Positions 4,864 through 8,702 of a stretch of 64,000 bases of DNA are shown here, piece by piece. Origin of the DNA: an uncultured Clostridia bacterium. Lineage in GTDB: Bacteria > Bacillota > Clostridia > Christensenellales > CAG-314. Under the pieces are notes generated by a model, which did not search any database, had not been told where the DNA came from, and saw only the letters and a list, made by a program, of their open reading frames with translations. The stretch lies in contig CANPXV010000001.1 in the NCBI GenBank assembly GCA_947586855.1, positions 81,350-145,349 on the forward strand, in the 5' to 3' direction. Both the position numbers and the translations under genes were made by a program. How positions within the stretch are numbered: the first letter of the stretch is position 1; each line of letters begins with the position of its first letter.

Positions 4864-4940
4864 TGGCGCGCCATAAGGAGCTCGAATCCCTAACCTTTGG
4901 TTCCGTAGACCAACGCTCTATCCAATTGAGCTAAAGGCGC
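4864..4940 (-). tRNA. tRNA-Arg (anticodon ACG), copy 1, with one acceptor-stem mismatch
   Basis: Hand-folded cloverleaf: GCGCCTT-TA-GCTC-AATTGGATA-GAGC-G-TTGGT-CTACGGA-ACCAA-AGGTT-AGGGA-TTCGAGC-TCCTT-ATGGCGC-G-CCA. Acceptor position 6 is a T:T mismatch. Confidence 0.85.
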
Positions 4941-5090: not shown

Positions 5091-5167
5091 TGGCGCGCCA
5101 TAAGGAGCTCGAATCCCTAACCTTTGGTTCCGTAGACCAACGCTCTATCCAATTGAGCTAATGGCGC
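5091..5167 (-). tRNA. tRNA-Arg (anticodon ACG), copy 2, with a perfect acceptor stem and encoded CCA
   Basis: Identical to copy 1 except for the 5' acceptor GCGCCAT, which pairs 7/7 with ATGGCGC. 77 nt. Confidence 0.92.
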
Positions 5168-5186: not shown

Positions 5187-5215
5187 ATTATACAGCTCGG
5201 CGGCAAAAATGTCAA
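5187..5215 (-). promoter_or_regulatory. consensus sigma70-type promoter for the tRNA-Arg cluster
   Basis: Minus strand reads TTGACA, a 17-nt spacer, then TATAAT, about 20 nt upstream of the tRNA 5' end. Confidence 0.6.
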
Positions 5216-5270: not shown

Positions 5271-6173
5271 CTATGCCCTATCCACAAACTGCGCCGCCAA
5301 AAAGCCCGCCACGGCACCGTCCCCCACGGCGGTGGCACACTGACGCACACTTTTGGTGCGGCAATCGCCTGCGGCAAAAATACCCTTGCGGCCGGTGAGG
5401 CAGTTTTCGCCCGCCACGATGTAGCCCTGCTCGTCCAATTCCACCAGGCTTGCAAAGGCCTCGTTGTGGGGTTGCTGCCCAATCGCCACAAACACGGCGT
5501 CGCAATCGATGTAGGTTATGGCGCCGTCGTCAGACTTGCAAACCACGCCCTTGACGCACTCGTCGCCCACAATCTCCGTGACGGCCACGCCCTGCGTCCA
5601 GACAACGCCCTGCGTCGCAAGCAGCCGCTGTTGCAGCTCCATATCGCAAAACAACCTGTCAAACAGGGTGACGAGGGTCACTTGCGAGCAAATTTCCGCC
5701 AGATACAGCGCATATTGCACGGCACTGTTGCCGTCGCCCACCACGCAGACGTGCTTGTCCTTGTAGAACGCACCGTCGCACACGGCGCAATAGCACACAC
5801 CCTTGCCCAAAAGGCGCTGCTCGCCCTCCACGCCCAGCTGTTTGTGCGTGACGCCCGTGGCCAGCACCACCGCACGGCACGGATAGGAGGCGTACTCCGT
5901 TGTGACCACAAAGCCGTTTTCGGCAGGCGCAACCGTGGCTGTGCCCATGTCAAAATCCACCCCGTGAGAGGTGGCCTGCTCAAACATTTTGTCGGCCAGC
6001 TGTGCGCCGCTCGTCTCCATGACGGAGGGGAAATTTTCCACCCTGGGGGCGATGGCTATCTGTCCGCCGAAAGCGTTGCTTTCCAGCAGCATAACCTTTT
6101 TGCCGGCACGGGCCGCATATAGCGAGGCGGTCAAACCCGCAGGTCCGCCGCCGATAACCACAATATCGTACAT
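5271..6173 (-). CDS. trxB: thioredoxin-disulfide reductase-like flavoprotein
   Basis: 300 aa with GGGPAG (FAD), a redox-active CAVC, and GDGNSAVQ (NADPH). It starts 9 nt after the nrdD stop. Confidence 0.88.
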   Translation of the reverse strand: MYDIVVIGGGPAGLTASLYAARAGKKVMLLESNAFGGQIAIAPRVENFPSVMETSGAQLADKMFEQATSHGVDFDMGTATVAPAENGFVVTTEYASYPCRAVVLATGVTHKQLGVEGEQRLLGKGVCYCAVCDGAFYKDKHVCVVGDGNSAVQYALYLAEICSQVTLVTLFDRLFCDMELQQRLLATQGVVWTQGVAVTEIVGDECVKGVVCKSDDGAITYIDCDAVFVAIGQQPHNEAFASLVELDEQGYIVAGENCLTGRKGIFAAGDCRTKSVRQCATAVGDGAVAGFLAAQFVDRA

Positions 6174-6182
6174 TTTTTGCCG

Positions 6183-8546
6183 TTATTTTGCGCTTTCGAT
6201 ATACTTGCGCACGTTGGACGCATTTTCGTATATCTTGTAGCTGTCGCCGTCGGCAACAACCAATGTGGGGGTAAGTTTGATCCGGAATTTTTGGGAAAGG
6301 TCGGCGTGCTGCATGGCGTTGATTTCCTCCACGTCCATGTTGGCCTTGTGCAGCATAAGCTCGGCCATCTTGCAGTTGGGGCAGTTGTCCTGCACAAACA
6401 GCAGCGGACGCAACAAGCAGGTCTGCGCCTTGGCTTCTTCCTTTTCGTGGGAGACAAGGCACTTCTTTTGCACGCTGTGCTCGGGCTGATAGGTCTTGCG
6501 ATCCTTCCACTCCTGCTGCTTGCCGTCGTTCCAATTTTGCACGGGGCGATAGTAGCCCGTTATGCGGCTGTACACCTCTGTCTTGGCGTGGCACTGAGGG
6601 CACTCGTACTGCTCGCCCGCAATGTAGCCGTGCTCGGGGCAGACAGAGTAGGTGGGGGACAGCGTGTAGTAGGGCAGACGATAGTTTTCGGCTATCGTGC
6701 GCACCAACTTCATTGCCGAACGCCAATCGGGCAGGCGCTCTCCCAAAAATCCGTGGAACACGGTGCCCGACGTATACAGCGTTTGCAGCTCATCCTGTAT
6801 ATCCAATGCATCAAAGATGTCGTAGGTGTAGCTGACAGGCAGGTGCGAGCTGTTGGTGTAGTAGGGGGTGCCGCCCTTTTTGCCGGCAAAGATCATGTCG
6901 GGATACAGCTTGGCGTCGTGTTTGGCCAAGCGATAAGCGGTCGACTCGGCCGGGGTGGCCTCCAAGTTGTACAGATCGCCGTATTTTTCCTGATAGTCGC
7001 TGAGTCGCTCTCTCATGTGGTTGAGCACCTTTTTGGTAAAGGCTTGCGCACGTGCGTCCGTCATGTCGCAGGCCAACCAGGCGGCATTGAGGCAGGCCTC
7101 GTTCATGCCCACAAGCCCGATGGTGGAAAAGTGGTTGTTGAATGTGCCCAGATAGCGCTTGGTGTAGGGATACAGCCCCGCCTCCATAAGCTGCGTGACG
7201 GTGGTACGCTTTATTTTGAGGGAGCGTGCGGCAATATCCATCATTTTGTCCAGCCGCTCAAAAAACTCCTTTTCGTCCTTGCTGAGGTAGGCGATACGGG
7301 GCATGTTGATCGTGACGACGCCGATACTGCCGGTGGACTCTCCGCTTCCGAAGAAGCCGCCGCTCTTTTTGCGAAGCTCTCTCAGATCCAGACGCAGACG
7401 GCAGCACATGCTGCGCACGTCGCTCGGCTCCATATCGCTGTTGATGTAGTTGCTGAAATAGGGCGTGCCGTACTTGGCTGTCATCTCAAACAGCAGCTTG
7501 TTGTTTTCTGTCTCGCTCCAATCGAAGTCCTTGGTGATGGAGTAGGTGGGGATGGGATATTGGAAGCCCCTGCCGTTGTAGTCGCCCTCTATCATGGTCT
7601 CGATGAAGGCCTTGTTCACCATGTCCATTTCCTTTTTGCAGTCCTTGTAGCGGAAGGGCATTTCCTTGCCGCCCACAATGCAGTGCAGCTCGGCCAGGTC
7701 GTTGGGCACAGTCCAATCCAGCGTGATGTTGCTGAATGGCGCCTGCGTGCCCCAACGGCTGGGGATATTGACGCCGTAGATGAAGGACTCGATACACTTT
7801 TTGGTCTCCTCGTAGGAGAGGTTGTCCGCCTTGACAAAGGGTGCAAGATAGGTATCGAAGGAGCTGAACGCCTGTGCGCCCGCCCACTCGTTGGCCATGA
7901 TACCGATAAAGTTGACCATCTGGTTGCACAGCGTGGCAAGGTGCTTGGCCGGTGCGGAGGTGATTTTGCTCGTCACGCCGCCAAGGCCCTCCTGAATGAG
8001 CTGTTTGAGGCTCCAACCGGCGCAGTAGCCGCTAAGCATGCCCAAGTCGTGCAGGTGGAGCGCACCGCTGCGATGCGCCTCGCCGATCTCCTCGTCGTAC
8101 ACCTCGCTGAGCCAATAGTTGGCCGTGATGGCGCCGCTGTTGGACAAAATGAGGCCGCCTACCGAATAGGTGACTGTGCTGTTCTCCTTGACGCGCCAAT
8201 CGGCAATTTTGAGGTAGTTGTCCACCACCGATTTGTAGTCCAAAAAGGTCTCGCCCGCACGACGAGCGTTCTCGTGCGATTTGCGGTACAAAATGTATGC
8301 CTTGGCAACGTCGGCATAGCCGGCCTGTATCAACACCGTCTCGGCGCTGTCCTGGATGTCCTCTACCGACACGATGCCGTCGGTAACTTTGTCCAGAAAG
8401 TCCGCAGTCACCTTCAACGCCAACATGTCGATGACGTCCTGCGTGTAGGGCTTGCCCGTGCCGTCGAAGGCCGCCTTGATAGCGTCGCTTATCTTGGAAA
8501 GTTTGAAGTCGATAACTTGTCCATTTCTCTTTTTTACACGATACAT
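6183..8546 (-). CDS. nrdD: anaerobic (class III) ribonucleoside-triphosphate reductase with a C-terminal thioredoxin/glutaredoxin-like extension
   Basis: ATP-cone-like N-terminus (RNGQVIDFKLSKISDAI). Zn ribbon CPEHG..CPQC. Glycyl-radical motif SRITGYYRPV. About 100 extra residues follow, carrying CPNC and LTPTLVV. Confidence 0.93.
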   Translation of the reverse strand: MYRVKKRNGQVIDFKLSKISDAIKAAFDGTGKPYTQDVIDMLALKVTADFLDKVTDGIVSVEDIQDSAETVLIQAGYADVAKAYILYRKSHENARRAGETFLDYKSVVDNYLKIADWRVKENSTVTYSVGGLILSNSGAITANYWLSEVYDEEIGEAHRSGALHLHDLGMLSGYCAGWSLKQLIQEGLGGVTSKITSAPAKHLATLCNQMVNFIGIMANEWAGAQAFSSFDTYLAPFVKADNLSYEETKKCIESFIYGVNIPSRWGTQAPFSNITLDWTVPNDLAELHCIVGGKEMPFRYKDCKKEMDMVNKAFIETMIEGDYNGRGFQYPIPTYSITKDFDWSETENNKLLFEMTAKYGTPYFSNYINSDMEPSDVRSMCCRLRLDLRELRKKSGGFFGSGESTGSIGVVTINMPRIAYLSKDEKEFFERLDKMMDIAARSLKIKRTTVTQLMEAGLYPYTKRYLGTFNNHFSTIGLVGMNEACLNAAWLACDMTDARAQAFTKKVLNHMRERLSDYQEKYGDLYNLEATPAESTAYRLAKHDAKLYPDMIFAGKKGGTPYYTNSSHLPVSYTYDIFDALDIQDELQTLYTSGTVFHGFLGERLPDWRSAMKLVRTIAENYRLPYYTLSPTYSVCPEHGYIAGEQYECPQCHAKTEVYSRITGYYRPVQNWNDGKQQEWKDRKTYQPEHSVQKKCLVSHEKEEAKAQTCLLRPLLFVQDNCPNCKMAELMLHKANMDVEEINAMQHADLSQKFRIKLTPTLVVADGDSYKIYENASNVRKYIESAK

Positions 8547-8617
8547 TTTGTCCTCCGTTTGCGCTCCGCTCTGCCGCAGTTTGGGCTGCCCCGCCCCGAG
8601 GGAGAGTGAGCCTTTAT

Positions 8618-8646
8618 ATTGTATTACAAAAAAAATCGTTTGTCAA
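8618..8646 (-). promoter_or_regulatory. candidate nrdD promoter
   Basis: Minus strand reads TTGACA, a 17-nt spacer, then TACAAT. A leader of about 65 nt ends in GGAGGACAAAATG. Confidence 0.5.
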
Positions 8647-8654
8647 CAGCTCAA

Positions 8655-8670
8655 ACACAATATATTGTGT
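8655..8670. promoter_or_regulatory. NrdR-box-like operator 1
   Basis: The perfect 16-bp palindrome ACACAATATATTGTGT matches the published NrdR box consensus acaCwAtATaTwGtgt. Confidence 0.65.
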
Positions 8671-8686
8671 TAGTTTTTCACTTTTG

Positions 8687-8702
8687 ACACAACATATAGT
8701 AT
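8687..8702. promoter_or_regulatory. NrdR-box-like operator 2 (imperfect)
   Basis: ACACAACATATAGTAT lies 32 bp centre-to-centre from box 1, which is the typical tandem-box spacing. Confidence 0.5.

Follow-up and report, generated by a model that had tools for sequence, protein, structure and literature searches.

A thioredoxin-fold domain fused to NrdD2-type class III ribonucleotide reductases of gut anaerobes, with an operon partner that often lacks the NADPH motif

A 64,000-nucleotide stretch from an uncultured Clostridia bacterium (Christensenellales; CAG-314; assembly GCA_947586855.1, contig CANPXV010000001.1, positions 81,350 to 145,349), hereafter the window, carries nrdD, which encodes a class III ribonucleotide reductase (RNR), in a form that continues past the glycyl-radical domain into a thioredoxin-fold domain. 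The next gene encodes a flavoprotein resembling low-Mr thioredoxin reductases (TrxRs). We think it probable that these two genes form an NrdR-controlled operon for a thiol-dependent, NrdD2-type class III RNR that is supplied with its own reductant. The fused layout, which a preliminary description made from the DNA sequence alone had presented for this locus, turned out not to be special to it and is widespread in gut anaerobes.

That description had noted that the NrdD frame runs about 100 amino acids (aa) past the glycyl-radical motif, with CPNC and a cis-Pro-type motif, and had read the extension as a thioredoxin-like fold. Both points hold. The frame continues for 101 aa beyond ...KDRKTY (residue 686), with C722-P-N-C725 and T759-P760-T761, and the extension is a genuine, conserved thioredoxin-fold domain. 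An alignment of 28 tails (A1) served as both profile and AlphaFold2 input. Searched against the PDB, the profile matched a protein disulfide oxidoreductase of P. furiosus (8.5e-9), a glutaredoxin (2.1e-8), and small thioredoxins. AlphaFold2 predicted a b-a-b-a-b-b-a fold for residues 715-787 with a pLDDT of about 90, and the domain has the topology of the thioredoxin fold, with CxxC placed at the N-terminal end of helix 1 and the cis-Pro preceding strand 3. The best Foldseek matches were thioredoxins and the thioredoxin-like KaiB fold, with E-values down to 6e-5; matches to thioredoxins had a probability of 1.00 and TM-scores (normalised to the target) of 0.5-0.72, and they included 9bxs_E, the thioredoxin chain of a B. 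subtilis RNR complex. The linker had block-mean pLDDT values of 49 and 45 over model residues 1-20 (NrdD 688-707), and the sole run below 50 in the model was residues 7-19.

Family models gave marginal scores. When the last 105 aa were scanned alone, Glutaredoxin (PF00462) reached 25.2 bits (cut-off 22.9) and Thioredoxin_2 reached 27.0 bits (cut-off 27); in full-length NrdD the PF00462 score was 21.0 bits, under the cut-off. The label 'NrdH-like' given in the preliminary description had to be dropped, as the domain scored 17.8 bits against the NrdH family TIGR02194 (cut-off 85.75), has CPNC rather than the C[VM]QC of NrdH, and has no WSGFRP. The glutathione-site motif GG-x-DD of glutaredoxins (Grx) was not evident by eye in the fused domain. 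We class it as a short CPxC glutaredoxin-like thioredoxin-fold domain. Motif counts for the fused protein were taken over 81 homologues, of which 76 have CPNC and at least 79 have the xPT cis-Pro motif (counting the ten commonest variants). Both motifs sit in a conserved tail block, LF..x.CPNCK...L....(I)xY..(I/V)(D/N)A......L...(F/Y)(G)(I/V)..(A/T)PTLV(V)....N(A/V)SN(I/V)(R/K)K(Y/F). Across the homologues, the linker that joins KDRKTY to this block is 21-49 aa long and shows no sequence conservation.

A scan of genomes, with each species represented once, gave at least 588 relatives of NrdD, and locus counts given here refer to the best 80. All eighty (80/80) carry the fusion, aligning through residue 781-787. 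The best 120 protein clusters show 74-95% identity and are nearly all 785-800 aa long; many bear precomputed Grx or Trx Pfam matches, and they are annotated today only as 'ribonucleoside triphosphate reductase'. Because the fusion is in frame in 80/80 loci and in about 120 clusters, we rejected an assembly or frameshift artefact as its origin. Among the hosts are Lachnospiraceae (Roseburia lenta NSJ-9, Pseudobutyrivibrio sp. YE44, and Blautia), [Eubacterium] hominis, Oscillospiraceae, Acutalibacteraceae, Ca. Borkfalkia, Faecalibacterium-labelled bins, and Lentisphaerae/Victivallales. The closest of the eighty loci (L001, 94%) comes from a rabbit-gut Clostridia metagenome-assembled genome (MAG). 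A word-indexed search with the 102-aa tail alone gave twelve fragments and the impression of a rare fusion, which the full-length search and the genome scan overturned. Among the 150 best representatives, fragments with the redoxin domain had only the glycyl-radical motifs RITGYYRP or RVTGYYRA, and no formate-type motif was found on any of them; judged by these motifs, the fusion is restricted to backbones with an NrdD2 active site.

Some sequences in the collection vary this layout. In 26/80 linkers, not including that of the window, a close Cys pair (CxC, CxxC, or CC) lies in an acidic stretch about ten residues before the thioredoxin domain (L006-L009, L013-L015, L019, L027, L030, L031, L034, L038, L039, L041, L045, L050, L051, L053, L060, L062, L070, L074, L075, and others). 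A TrxR-like gene is adjacent in 24 of these 26 loci (Fisher p = 8e-4), and the pair is reminiscent of the shuttle cysteines found at the C-terminus in class I and II RNRs. On a 501-nt metagenome contig (L081), a stand-alone 74-aa redoxin (MLFGTKTCPNCK...) occupies positions 167-391 and is followed after 7 nt by a TrxR-like gene (399-500), with no NrdD-like sequence upstream. Three of the four short matches inspected (L082-L084) were rejected as split redoxin/nrdD versions, being C-terminal fragments of NrdD with frameshifts or contig ends, and L081 was the only true stand-alone redoxin among the four. Two short metagenome proteins (P0152 and P0162) join the first ~50 residues of a TrxR-like protein to the redoxin domain and may be assembly chimeras or the result of recombination between the two adjacent genes. 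Some fused NrdDs, namely P0239 (1041 aa) and P0253 (1314 aa), appear to be enlarged by one or two long insertions resembling inteins, as judged by eye, one of which splits the finger loop of P0239 at MCC|CRLRL. Corallococcus is a myxobacterial genus, and MAGs labelled 'Corallococcus sp.' (L005, JAMPAB010000001.1; P0057/P0067) carry an 85%-identical Clostridia-type operon; that label looks wrong.

The catalytic part of the protein is a class III RNR by curated NrdD models, with scores of 1113.6 bits for NCBIfam NF006126 (cut-off 548) and 516 bits for TIGR02487 (cut-off 326), and it has the Cys/His Zn site of the glycyl-radical domain (C636, H639, C649, C652) upstream of SRITGYYRP. Cys175, SMCCRLR, NLEATPAE, and SRITGYYRP are invariant in 81/81 fused homologues, and the heptamer around Cys175 is TGYCAGW in 79 sequences and SGYCAGW in two. 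The closest solved structure is T. maritima NrdD (4coi/4u3e, about 9e-40). Aligned to it, the finger loop S-M380-C381-C382-R falls on SCCR 328-331, giving the extra Cys of NrdD2, and Glu529 (NLEATPAE) falls on Glu495 (NIEQVPAE), the proposed proton donor of the T. maritima enzyme, in the proton-donor column of Burnim et al. (PMC9669993). The same position is Leu or Tyr in three formate-type structures (Leu in P. copri 8p23, Tyr in 9d3x and in T4 1h78).

Aurelius et al. define NrdD2 by a third Cys plus Glu and note that some NrdD2 enzymes carry Met too (PMC4493059); the scheme of Wei 2014, as summarised there, has this Glu as Nb Glu438 / Tm Glu495. Since the third Cys and Glu529 fit this definition, the active site can be assigned to the NrdD2 type, which is compatible with a redoxin, and within it to the MCCR-plus-Glu majority. 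The preliminary description had made its thiol-dependent reading conditional on an active site that is not formate-type. Its expectation stands as far as Cys175, MCC, and Glu529 are concerned, and is qualified by the presence of Met380, as the finger-loop Met supports formate chemistry in E. coli NrdD (PMC9669993). The loop retains this formate-linked residue, so the NrdD sequence alone would permit both reductants: the thiol route is permitted, though not proven.

The partner gene was described at the outset as encoding a TrxB-like flavoprotein that starts 9 nt after nrdD and has GGGPAG, CAVC, and GDGNSA. All of this was confirmed, with a match to Pyr_redox_2 at 2.9e-47. GGGPAG and CAVC correspond to the FAD GxGxxG motif and the CxxC of low-Mr TrxRs, and the CxxC is present in all of the 55 partner reductases (55/55); among the 80 loci, 55 open reading frame (ORF) sets have a TrxR-like gene nearby. 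Of the two elements of the NADPH motif of NADPH-dependent TrxRs, GxGxxA and HRRxxxR, only the first is kept, as GDGNSA. In three pairwise alignments to solved TrxRs, VTLVTLFDRLF stands opposite V...HRRD..R (HRRDELR), and the His and three Arg are gone. The flavoprotein is closest to canonical NADPH-dependent TrxRs (S. aureus 4gcm, 2.8e-60, 207 bits), far above its similarity to the ferredoxin-dependent FFTR 6gna (5.8e-33, 118 bits), and of the two NADPH motifs that an FFTR-type enzyme lacks, only HRRxxxR is lost here. A weaker match (7.8e-27, 98 bits) was to PDB 5nii, listed as 'Thioredoxin reductase', which we take to be DvTRi. Its score against TIGR01292, the NCBIfam TrxR model, is 294 bits, under the cut-off of 343; one partner of the HRR type scored 347 and one of the Q type 327, the same order as the motif classes.

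These classes are HRRxxFR in twelve of the 55 partners, Q[ND][LM]xxxT in 34, and a T[LMW][FLM] type in nine. The Q-type partners keep GGGNSALQE. The T-type partners have T[LMW][FLM]D/E.LF with GD[G/A]NSA and comprise the window, its clade, and Borkfalkia. HRRxxxR is thus missing in 43/55 partners, and the three motif classes at the 2'-phosphate site suggest that NADPH specificity was lost repeatedly within one orthologous operon position. A missing HRRxxxR is the criterion by which two groups identify TrxRs that do not take NADPH (PMC10880999, PMC5627308). Because this 2'-phosphate-binding motif is gone, the donor of the window flavoprotein is probably not NADPH. The 'GDG' of GDGNSA was discarded as a sign of a degenerate dinucleotide site: position 2 of GxGxxA is free to vary, and a Q at position 8 is found in HRR-type partners too.

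The gene order is conserved as well. A same-strand TrxR-like gene follows nrdD in 49/80 loci, either at a distance of up to about 250 bp or with an overlap of a few codons at the nrdD stop. The NrdG2 activase gene (TIGR02495, 201-219 bits, cut-off 131) precedes nrdD in about 42-45/80 loci; in L001-L005, the clade of the window itself, nrdG does not lie next to nrdD. After clustering of the neighbouring ORFs, NrdD, the TrxR-like protein, and NrdG were the sole recurrent families, and no conserved fourth gene (ferredoxin or flavodoxin) was found among the neighbours of the 80 loci. The statement in the preliminary description that the window has no nrdG was borne out by a hidden Markov model built from the 45 NrdG2 genes of related loci, which found no match in the 64 kb. 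Searches with tblastn, each with an E. coli seed, gave neither nrdG nor nrdR in the 64-kb window.

Tandem NrdR boxes had also been proposed, and the operator agrees with published rules. The two boxes (0 and 2 mismatches to consensus) start 32 bp apart, leaving a 16-bp spacer, and a known NrdR site consists of two palindromes of 16 bp each, in most cases with 15-16 bp between them (PMC12051234). The criterion applied for an NrdR operator was two such boxes 14-17 bp apart ahead of an RNR gene, and this is what the window has. At up to three mismatches the 64-kb window contains three matches against 0.44 expected, and 0/100 shuffles reached three. In related loci, 131/165 box-like matches fall within the 4.6% of sequence that lies just upstream of nrdD or nrdG. 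A sigma-70-like promoter (a consensus match only) has its -35 hexamer starting 8 bp downstream of the proximal box; a comparable layout is described for S. pneumoniae nrdHEF, where the two hexamers also lie downstream of box 2 (PMC12051234). The third match (8536-8551, three mismatches) overlaps the nrdD start codon and has an equivalent at 5996 in L001. It is probably due to chance, though it could be an auxiliary site.

The analysis shows the domain identities, the motifs, the predicted fold, and the operator, as well as a conserved fusion and a conserved gene order. From these observations we infer a scheme in which each electron-transfer step and the identity of the donor are put forward conditionally. 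Each turnover would leave Cys175 disulfide-bonded to one of the cysteines (Cys381/382) in the Met-Cys-Cys finger loop, with Glu529 acting as proton relay. The CPNC domain, held on a flexible tether of ~27 aa after the glycyl-radical domain, would reduce the Cys175-Cys381/382 disulfide of its own or the partner subunit and would itself be re-reduced by the CAVC/FAD flavoprotein. Candidate donors for the flavoprotein would be NADH or a low-potential carrier (ferredoxin or flavodoxin), with NADPH unlikely in this lineage. NrdG, which installs the glycyl radical, would be encoded elsewhere in this lineage, as would NrdR, which would repress the operon through the two boxes. We favour turnover by thiols because the operon linkage is conserved, because the fusion is confined to NrdD2 backbones, and because the Grx-NrdB of Facklamia ignava offers a precedent.

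Several observations weigh against this scheme. The MCCR loop keeps Met380 in every fused homologue, which leaves formate use possible, and with the retained GxGxxA (GDGNSA) the flavoprotein may still bind a pyridine dinucleotide such as NADH. The redoxin domain scores at or below the Pfam and NCBIfam family cut-offs. About 25/80 fusion loci, mostly from Lachnospiraceae, have no adjacent TrxR-like gene, so the reductase is not obligatorily linked; these organisms must rely on a general TrxR, unless the domain plays a different role there.

One such role would be in activation or maintenance, with the domain keeping the cysteines of the glycyl-radical/Zn-ribbon region reduced for NrdG and with formate as the turnover reductant. 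Just ~27 residues separate the domain from the glycyl-radical domain's end and its Zn site, Met380 is invariant, and thioredoxin was reported in 2001 to act in this way on E. coli NrdD, as cited in PMC4390871. We nevertheless regard this as unlikely. The fusion was seen only on backbones that have Glu529 and the additional Cys, both of which thiol-dependent turnover requires, and within the 150 best representatives it was never found with a formate-type glycyl-radical motif; that the operon includes its own dedicated reductase also suggests a stoichiometric electron flux, not occasional repair. A covalent fusion in 80/80 loci and at least two phyla (Bacillota and Lentisphaerota) argues for a substrate-specific role, and the operon is under NrdR, a regulator of the deoxynucleoside triphosphate (dNTP) pool and not of redox state. 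Both facts make it very improbable that the domain and flavoprotein serve in oxidative stress or in general disulfide repair and share no more than location or regulation with nrdD, for instance as protection of an oxygen-sensitive enzyme in gut anaerobes, even though Clostridia have several specialised Trx systems, some of them related to stress or spores (PMC10880999), and a stand-alone redoxin plus TrxR-like gene does exist without an upstream NrdD (L081).

The preliminary description had proposed a self-contained chain from NADPH through TrxB and the fused redoxin to NrdD. The fused redoxin, the NrdD2 site, and the conserved TrxR-like partner were borne out; the NADPH step found no support. 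An ordinary NADPH-dependent TrxR would fit the overall similarity of the flavoprotein, nearest to 4gcm ahead of 6gna and 5nii, as well as its GxGxxA and the HRRxxFR of 12/55 orthologous partners. With TLFDRLF standing where the window protein and its clade would need the His and three Arg of HRRxxxR, and with a TIGR01292 score below the cut-off that an HRR-type partner passes, we give this version of the chain little credence.

A broader account of thiol-dependent turnover can be offered only tentatively, and we hold it to be possible but doubtful: a large clade of class III RNRs from gut anaerobes internalised its reductant; most lineages, that of the window among them, also rewired the TrxR-like partner off NADPH by independent routes (HRR-to-TLF and HRR-to-QNL); and dNTP synthesis would draw, through this flavoprotein, on NADH or on low-potential ferredoxin or flavodoxin. 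The acidic CxC/CxxC tether pair of about a third of the members may act like the C-terminal shuttle of class I and II enzymes, in which case class III would have regained such a device by convergence.

The fusion is conceptually unsurprising to an RNR specialist, and it bears directly on the formate-or-thioredoxin question for MCCR-type enzymes. Burnim et al. 2022 (PMC9669993) state that enzymes with an MCCR finger loop plus the active-site Glu could use either reductant. A fused redoxin with a conserved operon reductase gives strong genomic support to the thiol route in this clade, abundant as it is among the gut Clostridia of humans and animals, and suggests that the enzyme bears its own electron-delivery system in place of formate. 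Because cultured carriers exist (R. lenta NSJ-9, Pseudobutyrivibrio sp. YE44, and [Eubacterium] hominis), an experimental system is ready to hand. The three partner motif classes, two of them without an NADPH site, also form a natural series on shifts of donor specificity among TrxR-like enzymes of anaerobes.

The features of the locus are collected in Table 1. The gap between the nrdD TAA and the flavoprotein ATG is 9 nt (cggcaaaaa, 6174-6182). It contains no Shine-Dalgarno-like sequence ahead of that ATG, unlike nrdD with its GGAGG, which suggests that the TrxR-like gene is translationally coupled to nrdD. The neighbours are unrelated, with TilS and an M14 peptidase upstream and two tRNA-Arg genes and a UDG-family gene downstream, and the unit is therefore read as bicistronic. 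Its end is marked by the perfect promoter-like site ahead of the tRNA-Arg(ACG) genes.

Table 1. Features of the nrdD locus, in positions of the 64,000-nt window
Feature	Position	Strand	Remarks
nrdD::redoxin fusion gene	6183..8546	(-)	787 aa plus stop codon
ATP-cone domain, residues 3-92	8271..8540	(-)	PF03477, 7.7e-21
Class III RNR catalytic barrel and glycyl-radical domain, residues 121-686	6489..8186	(-)	PF13597 NRDD, 3e-190
Cys175	8022-8024	(-)	conserved strand-A cysteine
Met380-Cys381-Cys382 finger loop	7401-7409	(-)	
Glu529	6960-6962	(-)	within NLEATPAE
Gly664 in glycyl-radical motif SRITGYYRP	6555-6557	(-)	
Variable linker, residues 687-713	6408..6488	(-)	about 27 aa; low model confidence
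Thioredoxin-fold domain, residues 714-787	6186..6407	(-)	74 aa; topology b1-a1-b2-a2-b3-b4-a3
C722-P-N-C725	6372-6383	(-)	CPNC motif
P760 of cis-Pro-type motif T759-P760-T761	6267-6269	(-)	
Low-Mr thioredoxin-reductase-like flavoprotein gene	5271..6173	(-)	300 aa
GGGPAG, residues 8-13	6135-6152	(-)	FAD motif of flavoprotein
CAVC, residues 129-132	5778-5789	(-)	redox-active CxxC of flavoprotein
GDGNSA, residues 146-151	5721-5738	(-)	GxGxxA motif of flavoprotein
TLFDRLF replacing HRRxxxR	5649-5669	(-)	flavoprotein
Distal NrdR box	8687-8702	(-)	2 mismatches to ACACWATATATWGTGT
Proximal NrdR box, perfect palindrome ACACAATATATTGTGT	8655-8670	(-)	0 mismatches to ACACWATATATWGTGT
Sigma-70-like promoter TTGACA-17-TACAAT	8618..8646	(-)	11/12 matches; consensus match only
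GGAGG ribosome-binding site of nrdD	8552..8556	(-)	5 nt before ATG; read from sequence
Promoter-like site TTGACA-17-TATAAT	5215..5187	(-)	perfect 12/12; ahead of two tRNA-Arg(ACG) genes
tRNA-Arg(ACG) genes	4864-4940 and 5091-5167	(-)	directly downstream of TrxR-like gene

Among the closest known systems are the NrdD2 enzymes of Neisseria bacilliformis and Thermotoga maritima, which work with Trx/TrxR/NADPH (Wei et al. 2014, as reported in PMC9669993, PMC4390871, and PMC4493059). As far as those reports describe them, they share with the window protein a glycyl-radical RNR with a double-Cys finger loop and an active-site Glu, for which a protein dithiol is the expected reductant. Their redoxin is the general cellular Trx, acting in trans with an NADPH-dependent TrxR, and their finger loop is SCCR; here the redoxin is in cis, the loop is MCCR, and the operon-encoded reductase lacks the NADPH 2'-phosphate motif. 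Methanosarcina barkeri NrdD3 uses an NrdH-like redoxin and a ferredoxin:disulfide reductase (Wei et al. 2015, as cited in PMC5704485). On that account it is, like the system proposed here, a class III RNR served by its own small redoxin and by an NADPH-independent reductase, but it has no Glu, its redoxin is separate, and its reductase is of the Fe-S FTR type, where the window has Glu, a fused redoxin, and a flavoprotein.

A redoxin joined to an RNR component is known from Facklamia ignava, whose Grx::ATP-cone::NrdB fusion carries a Grx that was shown to be an efficient RNR reductant (PMC6187632). That fusion belongs to class I, is N-terminal on the radical-generating subunit, and depends on glutathione, whereas ours is class III and C-terminal. 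Table S1 of the same 2018 survey has a single 'Glutaredoxin:NrdD' row (Lachnospiraceae bacterium TWA4, WP_082039398.1, subclass NrdDd), listed and not analysed, which may well belong to the family described here. The survey relied on the Pfam Grx gathering score (PMC6187632), which most of the fused NrdD redoxin domains barely reach. Full-text literature searches, whose coverage did not extend to Wei et al. 2014/2015, gave no other mention of a redoxin-NrdD fusion or an nrdD-trxB operon, and none of the published accounts found reports the spread of the NrdD fusion, its operon partner, or the motif variants of that partner.

The flavoprotein shares with clostridial and cyanobacterial FFTR and with Desulfovibrio TRi a TrxR fold, FAD plus CxxC, and the loss of HRRxxxR (PMC10880999, PMC5627308). 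Unlike them, it is much closer to canonical TrxRs and keeps GxGxxA, and its replacement motif is TLFDxLF (QNLxxLT in sister clades) rather than the TQ/NGK of TRi. On these grounds its loss of HRRxxxR looks independent of theirs. In overall logic, a TrxR-type flavoprotein passing electrons to a dedicated Trx-fold module and on to one client enzyme, the proposed system resembles AhpF/AhpC and the NrdH/TrxB pair of class Ib RNRs. AhpF has its Trx-fold module joined to the reductase, and in the present case the client enzyme bears it; the enzymes that NrdH serves belong to class Ib, and its motifs differ from those of the fused domain. Thiol-dependent class III RNRs and redoxin fusions to other RNR components were thus known already. 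To these the present analysis adds a C-terminal, cis-fused redoxin on NrdD2, conserved together with a dedicated TrxR-like partner that is often without an NADPH site.

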